The position numbers and the translations under genes are program-made. Shown here piece after piece: positions 33,431 to 48,097 of a DNA stretch of 64,000 bases; position 1 is the first letter of the stretch, and each line of letters starts with the position of its first letter. Source of the stretch: Escherichia coli (GTDB taxonomy: Bacteria; Pseudomonadota; Gammaproteobacteria; Enterobacterales; Enterobacteriaceae); the NCBI RefSeq assembly GCF_003018255.1, contig NZ_CP027440.1; one strand, written 5' to 3'. Under the pieces are notes generated by a model. The model saw nothing but the letters and a program-made list of their open reading frames with translations. It did not search any database and was not told the DNA's origin.

Positions 33431-34897
33431 TCAGGAGCCCAGACGGTAGTTCGGGGACTCTTTAGTAATGGTCACGTCGTGAACGTGGCTTTCCTGAATG
33501 CCCGCACCGCTGATACGTACAAACTCCGCTTTAGTACGCAGTTCGTCGATAGTACCACAGCCGGTCAGGCCCATACAGGAGCGCAGGCCGCCCATCTGCT
33601 GGTGAATGATCTCTTTCAGGCGACCTTTATAGGCCACGCGACCTTCGATACCTTCCGGCACCAGTTTGTCGGCAGCGTTGTCACTCTGGAAGTAACGGTC
33701 AGAAGAACCTTTGGACATCGCGCCCAGGGAACCCATACCACGGTAAGATTTGTAAGAACGGCCCTGGTAGAGTTCAATTTCACCCGGAGATTCTTCAGTA
33801 CCTGCCAGCATGGAACCCACCATTACCGCGCTTGCGCCAGCGGCGATAGCTTTGGCGATGTCGCCAGAGAAACGGATACCGCCGTCAGCAATAACAGGAA
33901 TACCGGTGCCTTCCAGGGCTTCTACTGCATCAGCAACGGCAGTGATCTGCGGAACACCGACGCCAGTCACGATACGAGTCGTACAGATAGAGCCTGGGCC
34001 GATACCCACTTTAACCGCGCTGCAACCTGCTTCTGCCAGAGCGCGGGCGCCCGCAGCTGTTGCCACATTACCGCCGATGATTTGCAGATCCGGATATTTA
34101 GCACGAGTTTCACGGATACGCTGCAGAACGCCTTCAGAGTGACCGTGAGAGGAGTCGATCAGCAGAACGTCAACGCCTGCGGCAACCAGCGCGTCGACAC
34201 GCTCTTCGTTACCAGCGCCAGCGCCAACCGCTGCACCAACACGCAGACGGCCTTGCTCGTCTTTACAGGCGTTCGGTTTACGTTCCGCTTTCTGGAAGTC
34301 TTTCACAGTGATCATGCCGATCAGGTGGAATTCGTCATCAACCACCAGCGCCTTTTCAACGCGTTTTTCGTGCATTTTTGCCAGCACCACTTCACGGGCT
34401 TCGCCTTCACGCACGGTTACCAGACGCTCTTTCGGCGTCATGTAAACGCTAACCGGTTGATTCAGATCGGTCACAAAACGCACGTCACGACCGGTGATGA
34501 TGCCGACCAGTTCGTTTTCTTCGGTAACCACCGGGTAACCCGCAAAGCCGTTACGTTCGGTCAGTTCTTTCACTTCACGCAGGGTGGTTGTCGGCAGCAC
34601 GGTCTGCGGATCAGTTACCACGCCAGATTCGTGTTTTTTCACACGGCGAACTTCTTCTGCCTGGCGTTCAATGGACATGTTTTTGTGGATAAAGCCGATA
34701 CCGCCTTCCTGAGCCAGAGCAATAGCCAGGCGCGCTTCCGTTACGGTATCCATTGCTGCGGAAAGCATAGGGATATTCAGACGAATAGTTTTCGTCAGCT
34801 GGGTGCTGAGGTCAGCAGTATTCGGCAGAACGGTAGAATGAGCAGGAACGAGGAGAACGTCGTCAAACGTCAGAGCTTCTTTAGCGATACGTAGCAT
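33431..34897 (-). CDS. guaB: IMP dehydrogenase
   Basis: ORF 33431..34966; probable start at [21 protein letters not shown] for a 488-aa product; CBS pair and catalytic IGPGSICTT loop. Confidence 0.95.
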
Positions 34898-35028
34898 GGG
34901 CAATATCTCGACCAGAGTGGTTAATAAATATTGCCGCGGCATTATACAGAGCGTAACCGATTGCATCTACCCCTTTTTGCAAAAAATGCTTGCTATCCCC
35001 GGAGGGCGGGTTACTATCGACTGAATAA

Positions 35029-36435
<1,407 letters not shown>

Positions 36436-36467
36436 ACCGGATAAGAGGCGCCAGCATCGCATCCGGC
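36436..36467. repeat. REP-like element at the xseA-proximal island boundary
   Basis: gaccggataagaggcgccagcatcgcatccggc immediately after the xseA stop codon. Confidence 0.7.
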
Positions 36468-36503
36468 AATAGCTCCCAGGCTACACCAGATCCGCCATGC
36501 TGG

Positions 36504-39500
36504 TTACTGGAAGCAGGTCACCAGACCCGGTTTATTTTTTATTAGCGTGATACTACAATCCTGCGCTCCAGTACCTTCGTCCATCCCACACTGTTGAGAG
36601 GACAAATAAGGAAAACTGGGTGAAGACGGCCATCCCAGTGAATTAAAAACAGTATGCAACAACTCTAATTCATTGTATGTCGGTGCATTTTCTATGCTGC
36701 CACACTGCCTTGCGATATCCCATTTACTGGCATCAATGATATGTGCAGAAGCCCAGTTTTCGTAGTTAATAATCGGTGAGGATACGGGATTAGCCCCGGA
36801 CGGCAATTCCGTCGTTAACAACGGTCGATGTAGCGATTTACTAGTCACCACTACCGTGTCTGCCATATGTCCCCAAAAGTGCGCCGATGAAACATTTGGG
36901 CTGGTTGGCACCGTAAAAATAGCATCCAGCGTGTCTGTCGCGGAAGCGTAATTAGCCAGAGTAACCGTCAGTGGCATTTTATAACCAGGGGTATTATCCT
37001 GGCGGAGCGTAAAACTTGCCGTCCCATCCGCGCCTGTCATGCCACTAATGGTATTACCGCTTTCACTCAGCGTAACAGCCGAACCTGATAACGGCTGAAC
37101 GACGAGATCGTCCATCGCCACTACATTGCCATACAACGTTGCCCCAGCGTTACGCGGCGATGCCTCACCACGTTTCAAAGTAAATTCAACATTCGGCACC
37201 GTATTCCCGGCGCTGTCTTTCACCGTCACGGTTACGGACATGGCTTCGCCTTTTTTCACTTTCGCCGCCTGAGTGGCTGCATCAAACGCTGTTGAGGTAA
37301 GTGTGACGCTGGAAACGGTTGAACGCGCGTTAGCCAGGCAAGGCTGAAATGATTTTGTTGAACCCGTATACAGCGTGCCATTTCTCAAATCAACCGACTG
37401 GTCTTTACCATCGGCGGATTTATCCTCTGCCCACCAGGTGTAATACGCAGGCCAGCCAGTTTCAGTGACAAACGTGTTATTCGGATAACGCGCAGACAAC
37501 GAACTTAAATCATTGAATAGTGGCTGCCTTGCTACTTCACAAGGGCTCACACTCGCATCTGATTTCTGTGTTGGGGTAAAGTACGGCCAGTCTTCATTAT
37601 TGTTATTGATCTTGCCGACGCCAGAAGTCGATGTCAGTTCACTCCACAATTTCGGGCGTTCAAATACCGCACCATTCACTGCCGTCAAGGTTGCTGGCAT
37701 ATGCCCCCAGTAGTTAGCCTTCGCAGAATCCGGGCTGGTCACTACCGTGAATATCAGGTCCTGATTAGCCGTAACCTGCGGATTTCGCGCCAATGAAGCT
37801 GTAAACGGCGTTACCAGACCGACGGTGTTATTTTGGGTAACGTTGAACGTTATCGTGCCATCACTGCCGGTGAAGCCGCTCCATGCCGACGTATTCTGGT
37901 TGAAGGAGATACGCGCCGATGTTGGGGTGACTTCATCTAAAATGAGATCATCTACGGTATTGGAGGATACAGAGATCCCTGAACGGCTTTTCGCCTGCAC
38001 GCGCTTGAGCGTAACACCTTCGCCGCCAACAGGATTACCATTGGCATCTTTGATCGTCACCACGATGGGAAGCATCTCACCTTTTTTCACAGATGACGTG
38101 GGGGTACCACCATTGCTGGCAGTTCGGCCCTCATCATAGGCAGTCGATGACAGCGTAAGGCTTGCTGGTGCCGAATGTGGCTGCGTCAGACAGAGCATTA
38201 AAGCGTATCCATTAATAGTCGTCGTCGATTGTCCCGTTTTCAAATTAATGACGCCGTAATACCACGTCAACGCGTCAGTGGTGCTCATTTCATAAGTCCA
38301 CCAATTTCCACTTCCGGCAGTTATAGGCAACCCCAAATCTGTCAGTATTGTCCCGCCTGGATGATCATTATATAGCCCCTGTAACTCATTGAGACGCGGC
38401 TGATACTCAACCGGGCAATCCGGCGTAACTTTATTGGTATAAAAAAGGTATGACCACGACTCATTATTATTACTTACCGAGGACCCCAAGGTCGCTTCTG
38501 CTGCCAGTAGCGGTCGTTTAAAGGTCACCCCCGCCCTACTGGTAAACGTGTCGGGCATATGACCCCAGTATTTTGCTTTCGGTGAGTTCGGACTGGTTAT
38601 CACAGTGAAAATAACATCCATCGTGGCACTTTTTGTGGTGTCGCGCATCAATGTTGCAGTGAGCGGAGTTGCCAGCCCATAAGTCTCGTTTTGCGTCACA
38701 TCAAAAGTCGCTTTACCATCACTTCCTGTCGTCAGAAGTGCCTGTGCCCCATTATTATAGAGTGACATGTTTACTCCGGCAGGGGTGACCGGCACGATAG
38801 TAAGATCATCATACGTAGAATCTAGCCTGTTTTTTGCACGATCCAACGCAGTCCCGCGTATGAGATTAAAGTTTGCGCCTGGCAACAGATTTCCTCCGCT
38901 ATCCCGCACAATCACCGTCATCCGGATCGCCGTACCTTTCGCCGCCGTTGCACTAGGGCGACCATCGTTGCTGGCCGTTTTCTCCGCATCCAGTGCCGTG
39001 GAGGTCATCTCTATAGAAGCTGCCACTGCATGAGGGTTTACCAGACAGGACACAAATGCCACGGTGTTTGATAATGCCCTGGAGCTTGATCCATTCGATA
39101 AATTAATAGACTGATCGTACCAGACGTTCGCGTAGGCAATTTTATCGTAAGCCCACCAGGTGTTAGTCAGCGGAAGGCCTAAATCGGTCCCTATCGCACC
39201 ATTAGGATGTTCACTGTATAACTCTTGAAATTCGCTTAATAACGGTTGATAAGGTTCGCCGCAGTCTGATTTGCTGACATCATTTTTTGCTGCCGTATTC
39301 AAAGAAAGCCATGATTCATTATTAGCCATGGTTGACTGCCCCGCTGGATGCTCGGCAGTAAGCAATGGCCGCTTAAAGGCAATTCCCGACCGGGTAGTAA
39401 ACGTTTCAGGCATATGCCCCCAGTAACTTGCCAGTGGCGTATCCGGGCTGGTTATGACGGTAAACATGACCGGTAATTTGTTGGATTCTATCGTCAGCTG

Positions 39501-42500
39501 ATACAACTGGGCGTACATATTGGTTACCAGGCCCATAGAATCATCTTGTTTTACCGTAAAGGAGGTAGTCCCGTCCGCGCCAGTCACCCCATAAAGCAGG
39601 CTTGAAGAACTATTCATCCTCGCAGAAGCGCCTGCCGCGTTAATTACCGTAATCGACTTATTTATCATCTCGGCATTTTGACGGTTCTTCGAGCCTTCAC
39701 GTCTGAGAATAAAGGGGACATTGGGCACGCTATTTCCCTGCGTATTTTTAGTCACCACGCGAATCACCGCGTCTTCGCCTTTTTTCACTTTCAACGCACT
39801 CAAGGTGTCGTCAACTTTGACAAATTGCGCCGTATCATTCGCCTCAACAATGATCTGACTGGCAACGGCGACAGGCGTGGTCCGGCAGCTCAGTAATGCA
39901 CCACCAGATGAGGGCATCTGCGTTTCATCTCCTGTCTTCAGCGAAACGACATCATACGTAAAGGTTTGAGTGAACGTATCTGCAACGGTATTCGAGATAT
40001 AGAACCTCGACACTGGCCAGCCAATAGCATCATGTAATGCGCTACTCCCCTGGTGCGCATAAATGGCCCTAAGTTCATTGTCAGTTGGAACATACTCCGC
40101 GCCACAACCATTTATCGAGGTATCGTTAGCCTGGCCCGACGGGAACGTAGACCAGGCCTCCCCCTCTTCCACCAGGGTACCGATACTGGTGGTAGCACTA
40201 TTCTCGTCCCTCAGCAAAGGCCTTCGATAAATAAGACCGTCATCGCCTGTCGCCGTTTCAGCCATATGCCCCCAGAATTTGGCTTTTGGCGAATCCGGGC
40301 TGGTAAGCACCGTAAAGACAACGGGAAGCGTCGATTTAGTGCTGCTGGAGGAATCCAACGCTGCCGTGAGTTCTGTTTTTAGCCCGGTAGTCTGGTCTTG
40401 CTTCAATGTGAAAGTGGTGATGCCATCAGCCCCCGTCACGCCATAAATAACCAGGGTCGTTGAAAGAAAATCATCTTGAGTATTTCCCCAGGCATCCGTT
40501 ACCGCCAGCGAAGCAATCGACGTCGTAGTTGACACATTGGCCCTGTTCACGCTGGTGTTTCGTTTGAGGGTAAATGCGGTATTTCCCACAGGGTTACCCT
40601 GCGCATCTTTAGTGGTCACTCGTAATACGGCTTCTTCGCCTTTTTTCGCTTTGACAACATTATTCGTACTGTCAAATTTTGTGGGGTCTGCAGCTTCAAG
40701 AACAATTTGGCTTGCCTTAACAATCGGCGTCGTCTGGCAGGTAAGCAGTTCTTTTGTGGCAGATGGAATTATCGAACTGGTGCCTGAACTGAGATTGACG
40801 GCCTTGAAGTCACGCTGTTCCAGGCTACTACTACCTGTTGTGCTGGAAAGGTAACTTGAGGCGACGGGCCAGCCCTGAACCGTTTTCATCGCATTGCCGC
40901 GGTTGGCTTCATACAATGACTCCAGCCCGGCCTGGGAGGGAACATATTCACTACCACAACCATTAGAGGCTGTGCTTATAGCCTGGGTTTGGGTAAATTG
41001 CGCCCAGTCTTCATTCTCTTCTGCAATCGCTGTTCGACCCGACGTACTGGATAACTCTTTCAACAATAATGGGCGTTTAAAGACCGTTCCATCTGCAGCC
41101 GTCACTGTTTCAGGCATATGCCCCCACATTTTCGCCTTATCGCTGTCCGGGCTGGTGACAACGGTAAAAATGGTATCGAGGGTCGCTTTTTTCGTTGTGT
41201 CTGAATAGAGCGCGACGGTCAGCGACGTTTTTGTGCCATGGGTATCCGGGCGGGTAATAGTGAGAATTTTAGTGCCATCGCTGCCGGTCATCGCGCTGTA
41301 TGCTGCGGCGGTATCATTGAGCGAAGTTTCATCCGCCAGGCCACTATTGATCACAACCGGCGCAACCAGCGCATCACCGCCACCGGCAATGTGTTTTTCG
41401 TTTGATCGGGTATAACCATCGCCACGCTTCAGCGTAAAAGGCATATCACCCAATGGATTGCCCTGAGCATCTTTTACCGTCACCTTCACCTGTAGCGTTT
41501 CGCCTTTTTTCAGCTTCGCCGCATTTGCTGCCGCGTTCCACTGCGCCGGGTCCACCACTTCCAGCGTAATGCTGCTGGCAGGATTGTTAGCCGTCGTCAG
41601 GCAACTGACATAAACCGCCGTGCTACCGCCAACGGTCCGCGCGCCATCGTTGAGGGCTATGGTGTAGTAATGCGGCACCTGATCCGCGGGCGAACTGCTC
41701 CAGTAGGGCTGACGCTGCGTTGGCCAACCGTGTACCGTTTGAACGGCGTTACCGCTGTTAGCATCATAGAGCGCGTTAAGCTGGGAACGGCGTGGGAGCA
41801 TATTGGCACCACAGCCACCTTTACTGGTGCTGGAAGTGTTGGCCTGGCTAACGCGCGACCACACTTCGTTATTTTCCGTTAATGTGCCGTCCGGGCTGGA
41901 CACTTCCGCAGCCAGCCGGGGTCGGGCAAAGGTTAATGCATCGACGGTAATCGTCTCATCCATATGACCCCACATCTGCGCGCCAACCGCATCCGGACTG
42001 GTGAGCGTAGTGAAAATCACATTGTAATTAACAGTATTGGGAATATAGGAGTTTACAGGCGCAATATTCAGCGGCGTCGCTAAGCCCACACCTTGCGGTT
42101 GCTTAATTTCCACAGTAGCAAAACCCTGCGCATCCGTAGTACCGGCATAGACTAAAGACGGTTGCGATGTTCCGTAGAGTGTGCCATTCATCTCGATTGC
42201 GCCGCGGGTTGGATCATCAAAACCTGTAGTCTGCCCCTGACGATTTTTCCCCATATCTTTAGTGATGGTGAACGCGGTATACGGCACGGGCGCATTATTC
42301 AAGGCATTAAAGGTGCGTACCGTCATGGTAATCGTTTCACCCTCTTTAGCCTGCGCTCTGCTGCTTGTGGAAACATCATGATCGGTGGTCGCAGCAATCT
42401 GGGCGACCATCTCATTGCCCGAACAAGAAAGGTAGTTTTGCTTAAAGCCGGAATAGGTGTCGATGTTGCCCGTGGCCAGGTTCACCGACGCGTGCGACGT

Positions 42501-44558
42501 CTCTTCCACCGCACTAAGATACGCTTTTTGCAACGTTGGCCAGCCATATTCGGTGCCGATGACATTGGCTGGATGTGCGGCAAACAAACTGTGCAATGAG
42601 CTTTGGCTCGGAATATGACCTAAACCACACTCAGCCTGCATACTGCTATTCTGATCAAACAGCGCCCAGTCTTCGTTATTTTCCCGCACTGCTCCCAGTT
42701 CGTTGTCGGTTTCATCCGCCAGCCGTGGGCGTTTAAAGATATTATTCGCTTCAATAATGCCTAACATATGTCCCCACATCCGCGCTTTGTCGGAATCAGG
42801 GCTGGTGATCACCGTAAAAATAACGTCTTTCTCATCCGAGGCGGTAAAATCACTGCGCATTTTCGCGGTGATGTGTGTTTTCACCCCCACGCCGCCTGGC
42901 TGGGTCAGCGTCAGAGAGGCCTCTCCGTTAGCATCAGTGATCCCTTCATAGGTATGCGCGTCAACTTTGCGAACGTTACTGCCACCATCAATTTGTACCG
43001 GATGCGTCTCCCACGCAGCGTCAGTTTGATTCTTACGGTTAACACCGTCATCCAGATGCAGCGAAAAGTAGTAGTAAGCCAGCGGCTGATCGTTGTTCTT
43101 GCTATCGGTAATCGTCAGGCGTAAAGAAGCCTCTTCCCCCACCTTTACTTTCATCGCTTTTATCGTCGAATCATAACTGCCCGGCGTCAGTACCAGCTTC
43201 GGTTCAACATCGGGCGCTTCTTTATCGACACAGCTCACAATAAACGTCGTATCGTCCGGTTTTTGCGCTTCGCTGCGGTTCGAAACATCCGCCGCATGGT
43301 GCTGCCCGCTCATCCCCGCCAGTGATGACCAGTAGTAGTTACCCTGCATCGGCCAACCAGCCACATCCTGCACTGACGTTGGCACCACCGTCGCCAGCGC
43401 ACCGAACTGACGCATTCCGGGCAAAATGTCGCAATGTTTATCCGCACCACTCCAGGTAAAGGTGGACCAGGTTTCATTGTGATCGTTAACCGTACCGTCT
43501 TCATTATCGACTTCCGCCGCCAGTTTTGGTCGACTAAAAGTGTAATCACGGGCCTTCAGCGTATCGGGCATATGACCCCACATTGTGGCCTGCGGGACAT
43601 CCGGGCTGGTGAGGACGGTAAAGATCACTGCCGTTTCACTGGTCTGAGCAATACCCGCGAGGCTCGCGACCAACGGCGTTTTTACACCAGGGGCGTTGGC
43701 CTGGGTGACCGTAACCGTGGCAACACCATTCGCATCGGTAGTACCACGATATTCCGTCGCGGTGGTGGTTAATTCGGTCGTGCCCAGTTTTACCGGCGCA
43801 GTATTGTTCACTACACCCTGGCGGTTTTCAGCATCTTTGCGTTTGATAACAAAAGGAATATTCCCCACAACATTACCGACGCAATCTTTGGTGGTGACCG
43901 TTAACGTGATACTGCCGCCAACCGTCGTTTTCGCCGCACCGGAGGATTCGTCATAGCCCGCGGCGCTGACGGAAATAAGGTCACCCTGCGCGGGCGCAAT
44001 CTTCAGCGTCACTTTCTGATCGGCGAGGGTCAGAACACTTTCATAGGGATAGCCCGTCGAGGTAAGTAGATATAACAGCGGCATGGTCTGCTGGGGGTCT
44101 GGCTGCGCCCAGGCGATCAGCGAACGCCCGGCAAGGCCCTGTGCGCAAAATGAGCGATCTGCGACTGGCTGTGGGTCCAGTAAGGTGTCCGGCGTCGCGG
44201 CATCCGCCCAAACTAAAGATACTGTCGGTGGCGTTTGGTTTTCCCAACGTGGTGTGGCAATGATATCGCCTTCTCTGTCTTGCGGGTTGGTGACGAGCAA
44301 TTTAGAGACGCTAACATCCGCGCTGAATTCACTCGGTTTAGCGGTAAACGCTACCTCATGCGTCTTTGCAGGATCCAGAAAGACACTGCCCTGGTAGACG
44401 GGTATGCTGGCACTGTCGGCGGTGGGCACGGTACCGTTAAATTCGCCGACCGTATCTGAAGAGTCTTGCCATGCAGATTCTGCCCATGCCCCCCCAGGCA
44501 GCATTGCGCTTATCAGCAATGCGCAAAACACAAGGATTTTATTCAGGGTCAGGGACAT
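36504..44558 (-). CDS. ratA: Giant repetitive surface protein, RatA-like (signal peptide plus nine ~270-aa Ig-like/lectin-like repeat units)
   Basis: 2684-aa ORF with ATG at 44556-44558 and GGAG Shine-Dalgarno; signal peptide [26 protein letters not shown]; nine units each carrying ...FTV(I/L/V)TSPD...WGHMP... and a downstream Cys pair; T/S/N/G-rich. Last gene of the sinH-sinI-ratA arrangement. Confidence 0.8.
36750..43650 (-). repeat. Nine tandem, diverged ~0.80-0.86 kb intragenic repeat units within the ratA-like gene
   Basis: The DNA motif CATATG(A/C/T)CCCCA (encoding WGHM on the minus strand) recurs at about 36865, 37698, 38557, 39411, 40263, 41115, 41962, 42766 and 43569. Confidence 0.85.
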
Positions 44559-44678
44559 GACAGAAACTCCACCGGTTGTTAAACGGACGCTTGTCGCATC
44601 AACATATTTTGCTTAATCCGGGATTAAGCAAAATATGCGGAAACAGCATTCCCTTGCGGGAATGCTGCTGAGTACGCG

Positions 44679-45656
44679 TTATTTGTGTTTGTAAATAATG
44701 TGAAGTTTGTACCCCTGTACCCCGTCGCCGTTGGTCGGGATGGTAAGAGCTTCTTTACCATCGCGCGCAGGGCCGTTAAGGTTGGTTCTGGCGTCTTCGT
44801 TGGTCGCAGGGATGACCAGATTGTTATTATCGAAGCTTGAGTTGACGATACCACCCGAGGTGCCGAGCTGTTGGCTGCTGCCAGAAAGTACCCAACGGAA
44901 GTCATAATTGGCGGTAACGTCAGCATCGGTATCCGCATCAAACTTGCCATTTTTGTTCTCATCCGAGTACAGTTTGGCCACGTAGGTTTTGCCAAGTTCG
45001 ATTGGCGTACTGCCGTTGATAAGGTTGATACTGGTACCATCAACAAAGATGGCGACTTTCAGGTTCTGGTTAACTACCGGCCCTGGCGCAACGTTGTCGC
45101 TGTCGCTTCCGCCGCCGCTGGCAGTGGAAATGTCATAAAGATGCAGCGCAGTCCCGACGTTTGGCGTACCGGTCTGCGTGGTCGGCGTAATTTCAATACC
45201 GATATAACGACCACGGTCGTCATCGGTAAGAGTGTAACTGGTCACCTTCGTTGCCAGCTCTTTCGGATCGCCCCCCTGAGCGTCCTTGTAGCTCATCCAG
45301 CGGATAGTATCGATAGTCTTTGCGTTATCGCCCAATCCCCCAAGATCCACGTCGCCTTCGGTATCACCAATTTCCCAACTTACGGTTAATTTATCACCCG
45401 AGTAAAGACGCTTGTCCGTTTCACTGCCTGTCGGGCGAGCGCCTTTTAGATCAGAAGTCAACGTTACATGGTCGGCATCTGTCGTAGCGCTTCCCCCTTC
45501 CGAATAGAGCCACGGAATGGTTCCCTGGAAAATATTGGTTTCGCCGCTGTCGACCCAGGCGCTTTCTTCCGCCAGCGCCACAGGTGCCACACAATAACCT
45601 GCCAGTGCCAGCGCCAATGCGATCCGGGTCAGACCGCGTCTTTTATCCTGCTTCAT
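44679..45656 (-). CDS. sinI: SinI-like secreted protein (signal peptide; C-terminal domain paralogous to the SinH C-terminus)
   Basis: 325 aa; ATG at 45654-45656 with AGGAGA Shine-Dalgarno; signal peptide ...ALALAGYCVAPVALA; C-terminal ~110 aa aligns with the SinH C-terminus (LVIPATN, GDGxQGY motifs). Confidence 0.7.
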   Translation of the reverse strand: MKQDKRRGLTRIALALALAGYCVAPVALAEESAWVDSGETNIFQGTIPWLYSEGGSATTDADHVTLTSDLKGARPTGSETDKRLYSGDKLTVSWEIGDTEGDVDLGGLGDNAKTIDTIRWMSYKDAQGGDPKELATKVTSYTLTDDDRGRYIGIEITPTTQTGTPNVGTALHLYDISTASGGGSDSDNVAPGPVVNQNLKVAIFVDGTSINLINGSTPIELGKTYVAKLYSDENKNGKFDADTDADVTANYDFRWVLSGSSQQLGTSGGIVNSSFDNNNLVIPATNEDARTNLNGPARDGKEALTIPTNGDGVQGYKLHIIYKHK

Positions 45657-45710
45657 TGATGCTCTCCTTAATGAACCTTCAGCGACTGGCCGACTGGCCT
45701 TACGCCAATC

Positions 45711-47888
45711 TTATTTTTTGGTATACAGCACGCGTAAACCGTATCCCTGCAAGCCATCTCCCGCTTGTGCGCCATAGGTTTGCGCTGCTTCGCGGTTAGT
45801 GGCCGGAATCACAATGTCCTCATTGGAAGAGTTCGCCTGTGCACCCACTTCACCATTGATGCTCTTGCCGGTAAATTCCCACTTGTAGTCGTACTGCGCC
45901 ATCTCTTCGTCAGTCAGTTTTTCGACCTGCTGGAAGACACCGTCTTTATTGCTGTCACGCCACAAAACAAATCGATAAGTGTTGTTGAGCGGCAGCGGTT
46001 CTTTATCTTTACCTATCAGGTTGCTGGGTTTAGCTGCCCCCACACGATAGATAAATGCATTTAGCCCACCAATTTCTGCCCCGAGGAAAGTGACATCCAC
46101 ATAGTTACTGTCGTCGTAGGGCGCAGCTTTTGCTTTCCAGCGATAGGTGCCGGGTAAGGTACTGGAGAGGGTGACAGTGCCCTTTTCTTTATCTTGTTTA
46201 GCGATAAAAACGCAGGGGTTGTCGGTCGAGCAAGGCTTGTTGGTTAACGTCACTCGTTTGTCCTGCGCGTCGTAAAGCCGCGGCGTGAGGTTATCTTCCG
46301 GCAGCGCATCGCCATTGCGGTCGGTGTTATCGCCAAAGCTGTCGGTTACATCGAGATCCATCACCACACCATCAACGCCATCTGCCTGGGCGCTGGCTTC
46401 GTGGCTGTGGTTGTTCTCTTCCGGCACGTTCGCGATGTTATTAACAATCAACTCAATTTTACGGTCCTGCTGAACGGTGATTTCCACCACACCAGAGTTC
46501 TGTCGGTTGCCCTTTTCATCTTCCAGTGCCAGACGTACTCGCCAGGTATTGAGTTTTTCTTGTTCGGCTTTGTCAGAGCTGTACTGCCAGGCGGGCAGCA
46601 CCAGGTTCCAGTGGTTATTGTTACCCTCTGTCAGGGTATTCTCTTTGATAACCGGCATAACCAGCGTGCGGGCAGCATTGTTTTTCGCCTGCCATGACGC
46701 AGCGACAATTTTGTAGTGGTGGTTGATAAGCGCGTTAATGGTCCACTTACATTTTTCCAGCCCGACCGCCGCTTCAGGCGTATCTTTAATGACACACTCG
46801 GGGTGTTCGTTGGTGGCATCCGCTTTTAACCACAGGGTGACATCAAGCGGATCTTTTTCTTTGTATTCCAGAACAATAAAGTTATTACGCTCAACAAAAT
46901 CATGACGACTGCCCATCAACGAGTGAGCCGCTTTCACTTTATCGCTATCCAATTGATCTTTTAGCGGAACGCCGAACTGATAATTAAGAGTGGCATTAAT
47001 GCTGACATCGCTGTTATCTCCGGTCCCCGCTTTATAGTCCGCCCCAACGGTTAGTAATGGCACCGGTTGATAATTCAGTCCAAGTGTTACCGCGTAGGGA
47101 TCTTTCTCCAAATTATCCGTACCAAAAAGGGCAACTTCATCGCCGTAATATTGCTCGAAGACAACTTTGCCCCCCAGTTGCGGATAAGAAGGTAACCAGG
47201 CTTCGGCGCGAATATCCCAGCCGCGCGCAGGACGCTCCTCATAAAAATCGAAATCTTCGGAGTCTTTCCAGTCAGAAAGCGGATGATAATAGTTGCCAGA
47301 GAATTTTAAATAATCAGTCCACGCTTCGCCGCCTAAACCTAAACGGCGATGTCCTCGGGTAAAATCATAATCATAAAATATATTCCCGCCCAATAACCAT
47401 TCATTAAAATTATGTCTTACCCCAAGACCAATATTCCCGATTGTACGATCTTCTTTTCGCTGCGCAGAAAATTGACTGAAATAAACAGTGGTTTGATTAT
47501 CGTACCAGGGAACAAAATAATCGATGGAACTGCCATCCAGATCGCCGCCCTGGCCAATGGAGAGGTTCGAACGGACCTTACCGTAGGGAGAGAGAGTGTC
47601 TTCAATATAAGATTGTGCGGTTGAGGTGATTTGACTTTGCAGATAGCTTCTGGCCTGAGATTCCAGCGCCTCAGGGGTCAAGTTTTCAAACCCTTGCGTG
47701 GCGGAGTTGATGATGTAATCGGCTCCGCGCTCTTTCAGCGATTTACCCTTGTTGGTTTGTTCATCCTGCTGTGCTGCCTGGCTACCTAAATCAGGTAACG
47801 ATTCGTTTTGCTTAACATTTATCTCTGGTGCCGCGAAAGCAGCACCAGAGATAAATGTTAGAATAATACAGCGTTTCCATCGCAGCAT
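45711..47888 (-). CDS. sinH: Intimin/invasin-family inverse autotransporter (SinH-like)
   Basis: ORF track starts at a TTG (47918); probable ATG start at 47886-47888 (MLRWKRCIILTFISGAAFA, signal peptide) with AGGGA Shine-Dalgarno. N-terminal region with alternating aromatic beta-strand pattern typical of the intimin/invasin beta-barrel, followed by Ig-like passenger domains. Confidence 0.8.
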   Translation of the reverse strand: MLRWKRCIILTFISGAAFAAPEINVKQNESLPDLGSQAAQQDEQTNKGKSLKERGADYIINSATQGFENLTPEALESQARSYLQSQITSTAQSYIEDTLSPYGKVRSNLSIGQGGDLDGSSIDYFVPWYDNQTTVYFSQFSAQRKEDRTIGNIGLGVRHNFNEWLLGGNIFYDYDFTRGHRRLGLGGEAWTDYLKFSGNYYHPLSDWKDSEDFDFYEERPARGWDIRAEAWLPSYPQLGGKVVFEQYYGDEVALFGTDNLEKDPYAVTLGLNYQPVPLLTVGADYKAGTGDNSDVSINATLNYQFGVPLKDQLDSDKVKAAHSLMGSRHDFVERNNFIVLEYKEKDPLDVTLWLKADATNEHPECVIKDTPEAAVGLEKCKWTINALINHHYKIVAASWQAKNNAARTLVMPVIKENTLTEGNNNHWNLVLPAWQYSSDKAEQEKLNTWRVRLALEDEKGNRQNSGVVEITVQQDRKIELIVNNIANVPEENNHSHEASAQADGVDGVVMDLDVTDSFGDNTDRNGDALPEDNLTPRLYDAQDKRVTLTNKPCSTDNPCVFIAKQDKEKGTVTLSSTLPGTYRWKAKAAPYDDSNYVDVTFLGAEIGGLNAFIYRVGAAKPSNLIGKDKEPLPLNNTYRFVLWRDSNKDGVFQQVEKLTDEEMAQYDYKWEFTGKSINGEVGAQANSSNEDIVIPATNREAAQTYGAQAGDGLQGYGLRVLYTKK

Positions 47889-48097
47889 GCACTTTCCCTG
47901 TGACAATGATACAGTCAAAAATAAGCTTTAATATTGTATCCCTGATTATTCAGAAAGGCATGTCATAAAGAATAAATATACTCTTAATTATTTAAATTAG
48001 TGATTTCACTCAATTACATTAGTTATTCCACTAATAACAGATTGTTTTACCATTCACATATTAAATATAAATGATAAAACAATATATTCACATGATA
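47889..48097 (-). promoter_or_regulatory. AT-rich upstream/promoter region of the sinH-sinI-ratA cluster
   Basis: ~210-bp spacer between the yfgJ stop and sinH start, visibly much more AT-rich than flanking coding DNA; no other promoter-sized gap before sinH. Confidence 0.5.

Follow-up and report, generated by a model that had tools for sequence, protein, structure and literature searches.

A giant RatA-like gene of Escherichia coli composed of nine two-domain units, with rare in-register unit losses at short shared words

What kind of protein is encoded by a gene made of nine successive units of roughly 0.8 kb, and do such units make the gene prone to gain and lose copies? The question is raised by positions 36,504 to 44,558 of a 64,000-nucleotide stretch of Escherichia coli DNA (contig NZ_CP027440.1, assembly GCF_003018255.1), which we call the window. 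A first-pass annotation, made from the letters alone, had described the region as a giant RatA-like gene of alternating immunoglobulin-like (Ig-like) and lectin-like modules, open to recombinational expansion or contraction and to collapse in short-read assemblies. We consider it highly probable that the observations as a whole are best explained by the ratA-like gene of the ila island, a gene of nine old two-domain units from which units are rarely lost, with export, an adhesin function and loss by slippage as the conditional parts of that explanation.

The interval is a single minus-strand open reading frame (ORF) of 2684 codons with an ATG start. Its product matches the NCBIfam equivalog NF011844 'RatA-like protein' over its full length (residues 1-2684 on profile positions 1-2683 of 2683; 5883.4 bits against a cutoff of 3870), which bears out the name first given to it. 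RefSeq annotates the same coding sequence in a strain that is 99.5% identical, and RefSeq records, in which the product is called 'adhesion domain-containing protein', have the gene order der, zinc-ribbon gene, sinH, sinI, ratA-like gene, xseA, guaB, guaA. Within the xseA-der island the gene thus lies downstream of both sinH and a member of the sinI family, with xseA, guaB and guaA on its far side. Given the full-length profile match, the upstream sinI and sinH, the RefSeq neighbours and the literature, we identify the region as the ratA-like gene of ila, the sinH-sinI-ratA island of E. coli, which is inserted between der/yfgJ and xseA and is the counterpart of part of Salmonella CS54; the literature on the locus regards ila as derived from the CS54 island. 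Of 5426 complete E. coli genomes, 1734 carry the gene or a diverged allele, on the chromosome in every case. A PADLOC search returned no match for the ratA-like gene, sinI or sinH. The adhesin is sometimes labelled 'ribosome association toxin RatA' or 'ratA-like toxin', a confusion with the unrelated RatA toxin; examples are the source name of protein P0051, a table in PMC3680342 and bioRxiv 2023.12.11.571174.

Salmonella RatA and RatB of CS54 (NF011843 and NF011842, 'DUF823/DUF824 repeat adhesin') have the N-terminal domain and the two-domain unit described below, and occupy the same place, downstream of sinH (sivH) and sinI and beside xseA. Their profiles align with the first ~1480 residues of the present protein, which scores below both cutoffs (2012 against 3700 for RatA, 2204 against 4079 for RatB), hence the separate 'RatA-like' equivalog. 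By arithmetic, the profile lengths of 1860 (RatA) and 2435 aa (RatB) suggest about six and about eight units, whereas the E. coli protein has nine. E. coli also carries one Rat gene, with neither shdA nor ratB, in contrast to the two Rat genes of a Salmonella-type locus (L012).

The nine units are marked by a 12-mer, CATATGHCCCCA, that occurs nine times in the window, in every case within the ratA-like ORF (chance expectation 0.05; none of 100 shuffles reaches nine). On the coding strand it reads TGG GGN CAT ATG and encodes W-G-H-M. Start-to-start spacings are 834, 858, 855, 852, 852, 846, 804 and 804 nt, so that both the count and the spacing of 803-859 bp reported in the first-pass annotation hold. 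A self-BLASTP gave the identity high-scoring segment pair alone, and a per-offset BLOSUM62 self-score was used in its place; it peaks at 267 and 284-285 residues and at their multiples, which supplies the periodicity that a self-comparison had been expected to reveal. In an alignment of the nine units, F-T-x-x-T-S-P, an Ala, W-G-H-M, R-P-x-L, E-x-W, G-x-P and two Cys are invariant, and the spacing of RPxL, ExW and the Cys pair is regular in all nine. The core of the longer consensus proposed earlier is therefore sound, but its 'KA(K/R)' and 'P(D/E)T' elements are present in most units and not in all. Unit 9 has four Cys in all, the two extra ones lying in a QQCG...QDC loop.

As DNA, the gene does not qualify as a conventional tandem repeat. 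When aligned by codon, the units are 37.5-49.8% identical (about 44%), and the longest exact word common to any two units is 20 nt. DNA is conserved between units only in a block of 61-112 nt around the 12-mer (60-75% identity), at the boundary of the two domains of the unit. Tandem Repeats Finder (TRF), applied to positions 34000-47000, reported no array in the ratA-like gene because the units are too diverged.

The domain content of the units is clear. Pfam places BIg21 (PF05688) and then InvE_AD 'Adhesion domain' (PF05689) in nine of nine units at E ≤ 0.001, the alternation typical of the DUF823/DUF824 (InvE_AD/BIg21) repeat adhesins. Big_1, the family suggested at first, gave marginal matches in the same search and none at E ≤ 0.001 in any unit, and is replaced by BIg21. 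Searched by sequence against solved structures, a profile of the units has one match, 5N40 (E 4e-45), with which the units have the TSPD, WGxM, RPxL, NNExW and GWP motifs in common. An AlphaFold model of unit 4, built with a 45-sequence unit alignment from diverse relatives, has a mean pLDDT of 95.7 and a pTM of 0.89. Its best Foldseek match in the PDB is again 5N40, 'Yersinia pseudotuberculosis adhesin InvE' (E 1e-20, TM 0.77). Three further Foldseek matches have no Ig domain and must therefore correspond to the second half of the unit; these we take to be members of the C-type-lectin-like fold class. The related C-terminal domain of Lcl is a structural neighbour, and in a survey of diversity-generating retroelements DUF823 was independently placed with the C-type-lectin DUF1566 class. 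The second half of the unit is thus found to have a fold of the C-type-lectin-like superfamily with a conserved disulfide. In the model FTVxTSPD forms the last strand of the Ig domain and WGHM opens the adhesion domain; the conserved block is therefore the inter-domain junction.

The fold also invites the view that these domains are carbohydrate-binding lectins in the strict sense, with a glycan recognised by every unit, and the resemblance to Lcl, which binds glycosaminoglycans, adds to its appeal. However, none of the EPN, QPD and WND motifs is present in any of the nine lectin-like domains (the single QPD of the protein, at aa 152, is in the N-terminal domain), so sugar binding is not implied. 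The Ca/carbohydrate motifs are reportedly missing from InvE too, and intimin and invasin use a C-type-lectin-like fold to bind proteins. We regard glycan recognition by every unit as unlikely. The original description of Ig-like and disulfide-stabilised lectin-like modules accordingly stands for the fold but not for lectin activity.

The family has 433 representatives at E ≤ 0.001 among 1.84 billion representative proteins, in two architectures: Rat-like proteins, with an N-terminal domain followed by 5-11 units, and invasin-like proteins, with a single C-terminal unit. InvE has its own beta-barrel and a single adhesion domain at its tip, whereas RatA has no barrel and carries the Ig and adhesion pair nine times. 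Likewise, intimin and invasin (type Ve) combine an IAT_beta barrel and a LysM region with one lectin-like domain at the tip; RatA has neither barrel nor LysM region, its nine lectin-like domains are distributed along the rod, and the barrel is encoded by the separate gene sinH. A Pfam search of residues 1-225 returned no match, and there is no IAT_beta barrel in the RatA-like polypeptide.

How would a barrel-less protein of this size leave the cell? Residues 1-26 look like a Sec signal peptide, with a basic n-region, a hydrophobic core and an AWA cleavage motif in the translation; the L-V-F-C sequence is not a lipobox. They are followed by a family-specific N-terminal domain of ~160 aa that is modelled as a small beta domain. 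The protein would be exported by Sec and would then reach the surface or the medium by means of the co-encoded SinH beta-barrel and SinI, in a two-partner arrangement like that of ZirT/ZirS/ZirU. Rat-like proteins have been proposed, by that analogy, as substrates of the adjacent inverse autotransporter (Heinz et al. 2016), and we consider this the most likely export route, at about even odds. Like the Salmonella ZirT/ZirS/ZirU locus, the island encodes a barrel protein and then barrel-less partners with signal peptides; RatA differs in its domains and in its size, which is about ten times that of ZirS or ZirU. SinI shares its C-terminus with SinH and matches the ZirU family weakly (E 1e-7, 32 bits against a cutoff of 100). 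Two loci whose flanking genes differ repeat the order IAT_beta barrel, SinI-like protein of 300-333 aa and Rat-like gene; one of them encodes a five-unit Rat protein, and the other has three 'mini-Rat' genes that each combine the N-terminal domain with one unit. The mini-Rat genes (423-433 aa) are consecutive at L014:6001-10086, downstream of an inverse-autotransporter barrel and two small genes; they are a minimal version of the system and possibly easier to study.

Once outside, the protein would act as an adhesin, long and multivalent, on which nine different lectin-like heads follow one another like beads on a string. These heads may differ in ligand, since they are only ~30% identical to each other, and unit 9, with its extra Cys and, together with unit 1, the best conservation, may be a specialised tip domain. 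SiiE and BapA, with their Big repeats, are likewise very long rods of repeated beta-sandwich domains, but they are type I secretion system substrates with C-terminal signals and single-domain repeats, in contrast to the N-terminal Sec signal and two-domain unit of RatA. Strain-to-strain differences in repeat number are common among such giant repeat adhesins.

A different view of the function is that RatA is not a host adhesin but a periplasmic or surface structural protein (a spacer, a component of the biofilm matrix or a decoy for phage or antibody), with SinH and SinI mere neighbours. It accommodates the listing of Salmonella ratA, in a secondary source, with 'no role in virulence' in the mouse. 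The E. coli gene has also been independently and recurrently mutated in hospital ST131 isolates and truncated alleles occur on complete chromosomes, so its loss is tolerated. However, the domain that recurs in each unit is the one by which Yersinia InvE adheres at its tip, and it has the fold of the receptor-binding domains of intimin and invasin; the synteny of barrel, SinI and Rat is conserved in unrelated contexts; and deletion of ila genes attenuated uropathogenic E. coli (UPEC) in a mouse model of urinary tract infection, as far as the citing source relates (Shea 2022). A purely structural role thus seems quite improbable.

How old is the array? Within the protein the units are 27-39% identical to each other in amino acid sequence. 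The identity rises to 59-78% when they are compared with the units at the same positions of an 11-unit allele, and to 49-80% with those of the UPEC-type allele. Because units resemble same-numbered units of other alleles more than their neighbours, the array is ancient: its units are old paralogues with positional orthology between alleles, and concerted evolution has left no sign. Between allele families, conservation is highest in units 1-4 and in the last unit (60-78% identity between unit 9 and the final units of other alleles), and the middle units 5-8 are the most diverged; among single units, 1 and 9 are the best conserved.

The number of units does vary between strains, as had been anticipated. 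E. coli alleles have 7, 8, 9 or 11 units, and one 1864-aa variant probably has six. Nine units are present in the allele studied here and in the UPEC-type allele (strain 2/0, 2693 aa), a seven-unit allele (2139 aa) is found in 48 complete genomes, and the eleven-unit allele (3264 aa) sits at the same locus; lengths are accordingly quantised at about 1864, 2111-2139, 2396-2413, 2680-2697 and 3264 aa. Unit gaps were read from a global alignment of the 120 closest protein clusters to the window protein. Many alleles that are 97-99% identical to it lack either one unit (272-287 aa) or two (566-571 aa) in a single, clean in-frame gap. The unit-scale gaps fall into 32 distinct classes. Alignment is reliable for the 17 classes that occur in alleles sharing at least 86% identity with the present one (most 97-99%); of these, 11 start in the 24-residue FTV...WGHMPET block, a stretch that spans ~9% of a unit (binomial P 1.4e-8). 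The 120 clusters show no recent duplication; relative to the present allele, the sole insertion consists of two additional units, old and diverged, in the 11-unit allele. Of the expansion or contraction foreseen at the outset, only recent contraction is therefore evident. Many of the UPEC-type alleles P0111-P0120 stop early (~2116-2262 aa) with unrelated C-terminal residues, two of them on chromosome-size contigs; these are probably frameshift pseudogenes, the gene being sometimes inactivated.

To locate the crossovers, the DNA of seven variants was compared with both parental positions in the window gene. All seven junctions fall within 5-20 nt of microhomology identical in both units, and five are in the WGHM-coding motif. 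Loss by joining units 5 to 6 is represented by P0040 (CTGGGGGCATATG, 13 nt) and P0042 (GAAAAAAGGCGAAGA, 15 nt, encoding KKGE); the other junctions join units 4 to 5 in P0028 (TGGGGGCATATG, 12 nt), units 6 to 7 in P0033 (CATATGCC, 8 nt), units 3 to 5 in P0053 (TGGGG, 5 nt), units 4 to 6 in P0055 (TGGGGGCATATGCCTGAAAC, 20 nt) and units 2 to 3 in P0029 (TGGCCAACG, 9 nt, encoding GWPT). The unit 5-to-6 loss has at least three crossover points (within TSPD, after SPDSP and within WGHM) and so arose more than once. A 400-nt probe over the P0040 junction is matched in full by exactly two complete chromosomes, FDAARGOS_1298 (NZ_CP070115.1; 100%) and BEN5202 (NZ_LR740758.1; 98.3%), which represent two different crossover classes of this loss.

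Such losses are rare. With a four-unit sub-query, for which the loss of a single unit pulls coverage below 80%, units 1-4.5 are intact in 1685 of 1685 complete genomes. Units 4.5-8.5 are intact in 931 of 938, so that at most seven have a unit-scale gap; this second count excludes the second half of the UPEC-type (L001) allele family, which is beyond the reach of megablast from the window. The main nine-unit clusters have thousands of members, and most deletion variants are singletons.

These junctions point to a mechanism in which units would be lost by RecA-independent, microhomology-mediated slippage or illegitimate recombination, since the shared stretches are far below the ~25 bp that is the minimum for efficient RecA-dependent exchange in E. 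coli. An in-register crossover at the domain boundary would yield a clean chimera of the Ig domain of unit i and the adhesion domain of unit i+1 or i+2, and such chimeras should fold because domain alternation is kept. The diverged repeats are therefore unlikely substrates for ordinary homologous recombination; what is seen instead are rare losses through 5-20 nt of microhomology. Tentatively, and with considerable doubt, the conserved Ig/lectin boundary block (FTVxTSPD...WGHMPET) might serve as a built-in breakpoint, the recurrent 5-to-6 losses having been selected for a shorter stalk. If so, short identical stretches would let lineages shorten the adhesin in whole-unit, foldable steps, and a shorter stalk might match the depth of capsule or O-antigen or shed an immunodominant unit, as opposed to neutral decay.

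Could the shorter alleles instead be assembly artefacts, produced by short-read assemblers jumping between similar units? Most deletion variants are indeed single-member clusters from Logan, SKESA-type or metagenome assemblies, and their junctions lie at the stretch most similar between units. However, the longest shared exact word, 20 nt, is shorter than the k-mers that de Bruijn assemblers use to join contigs, which makes such jumps unlikely; the unit 5-to-6 junction is present in the complete chromosomes FDAARGOS_1298 and BEN5202 with different crossover points; and the alleles P0040, P0029 and P0042 were read on 24, 19 and 10 contigs, respectively. We consider an artefact very improbable, and the collapse of short-read assemblies feared earlier is not supported.

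A contingency locus of near-identical repeats, homogenised by gene conversion and subject to frequent RecA-dependent expansion and contraction, would share with this gene its regular periodicity and its differences in copy number among alleles, but can be set aside almost entirely in view of the divergence of the units (27-39% identity in protein, 37-50% in DNA, a 20-nt longest word, TRF negative), their positional orthology between alleles, the lack of recent duplications among the 120 clusters and the scarcity of unit-scale gaps in complete genomes (none of 1685 for the first half, at most 7 of 938 for the second).

Several points weigh against the explanation as a whole, that is, an exported adhesin that loses units by slippage. 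Most variant alleles are singletons from short-read assemblies, and RecA independence is read from junction anatomy alone. The N-terminal domain resembles neither SinI nor SinH and shows no fold recognisable as one for secretion or anchoring, the canonical sugar-binding motifs are missing, and Salmonella ratA has the virulence record cited above. Finally, hairpins upstream of the gene, described below, could mean that ratA is transcribed or regulated separately from sinH and sinI.

The gene, its family name, its two Pfam domains, the crystal structure of a homologous unit and the export hypothesis are already on record. The catalogue of in-register unit losses and their concentration at the WGHM-coding block appear to go beyond the literature that we found, and constitute a modest extension of a theme common in large adhesins. 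According to the ila literature, the island is overrepresented among extraintestinal pathogenic E. coli, and SinH is being developed as a vaccine antigen; of the proteins that the island encodes, RatA is by far the largest. Experiments can be narrowed by the presence of nine different InvE-type adhesion domains on one rod, by the conserved barrel-SinI-Rat order in unrelated loci and by natural alleles from which whole units have been cleanly lost. In genome analysis, short reads should suffice to assemble the gene correctly, and where lengths differ by ~0.85 kb, real alleles are a likelier cause than errors. The coordinates of all features are collected in Table 1.

Table 1. Features of the ratA-like gene and its neighbours, in positions of the window.
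Feature	Position	Strand	Basis
ratA-like gene, 2684 aa	36504..44558	minus	ORF, ATG start; NF011844 match; RefSeq CDS counterpart
Putative Sec-type signal peptide (aa 1-26, ...GGAWA/E)	44481..44558	minus	read from translation
N-terminal domain (aa 27-185), conserved in Rat-like proteins	44004..44480	minus	
Unit 1 (aa 186-451), BIg21 + InvE_AD	43206..44003	minus	unit cutting, alignment, Pfam
Unit 2 (aa 452-720)	42399..43205	minus	unit cutting, alignment, Pfam
Unit 3 (aa 721-994)	41577..42398	minus	unit cutting, alignment, Pfam
Unit 4 (aa 995-1282), modelled unit	40713..41576	minus	
Unit 5 (aa 1283-1566); unit 5/unit 6 boundary is the commonest deletion site	39861..40712	minus	
Unit 6 (aa 1567-1846)	39021..39860	minus	unit cutting, Pfam
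Unit 7 (aa 1847-2131)	38166..39020	minus	unit cutting, Pfam
Unit 8 (aa 2132-2415)	37314..38165	minus	unit cutting, Pfam
Unit 9 (aa 2416-2684), terminal, two extra Cys	36507..37313	minus	unit cutting, Pfam, Cys count
Nine WGHM-coding 12-mers (plus-strand starts 36864, 37698, 38556, 39411, 40263, 41115, 41961, 42765, 43569)	36864..43580	minus	
sinI-ratA intergenic region, two hairpins	44559..44678	minus	RNA minimum free energy -49.7 kcal/mol, z -5.96 against shuffles
sinI-family gene, 325 aa	44679..45656	minus	NF040711, 333 bits against cutoff 165
sinH, intimin-like inverse autotransporter	45711..47918 (ORF limits)	minus	NF033423, 1486 bits against cutoff 999, residues 11-735

The true start of sinH is probably about ten codons inside the ORF limit. 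In strain 200164, the closest complete genome, an IS1 transposase separates the zinc-ribbon gene from sinH and is thus inserted immediately upstream of the first gene of the island (L003:1743-2440).

The spacer between sinI and ratA contains two hairpins with stems of 12 bp and 17 bp. Conservation of both extends to other alleles and to L013, a distant barrel-SinI-Rat locus, and the stem of the second shows base changes on both sides in these comparisons. An Rfam search of the spacer gave no family, its only match being a chance one to a microRNA. The hairpins could act as a terminator, an attenuator or a processing site that separates ratA expression from that of sinH and sinI. The corresponding spacer of the seven-unit allele (L002:4101-4390) is ~190 nt longer and holds, between two copies of the first hairpin, an insertion (GCCTGATG... 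/ ...GCATCCGGC) that resembles repetitive extragenic palindromic (REP) sequences and bacterial interspersed mosaic elements. At the other end of the gene, a REP-like element (GCCGGATGCGATG...CTTATCCGG) occupies positions 36436-36503, in the convergent gap between the stop codons of ratA and xseA; the REP-type pattern is observed five times in the window against 0.65 expected.

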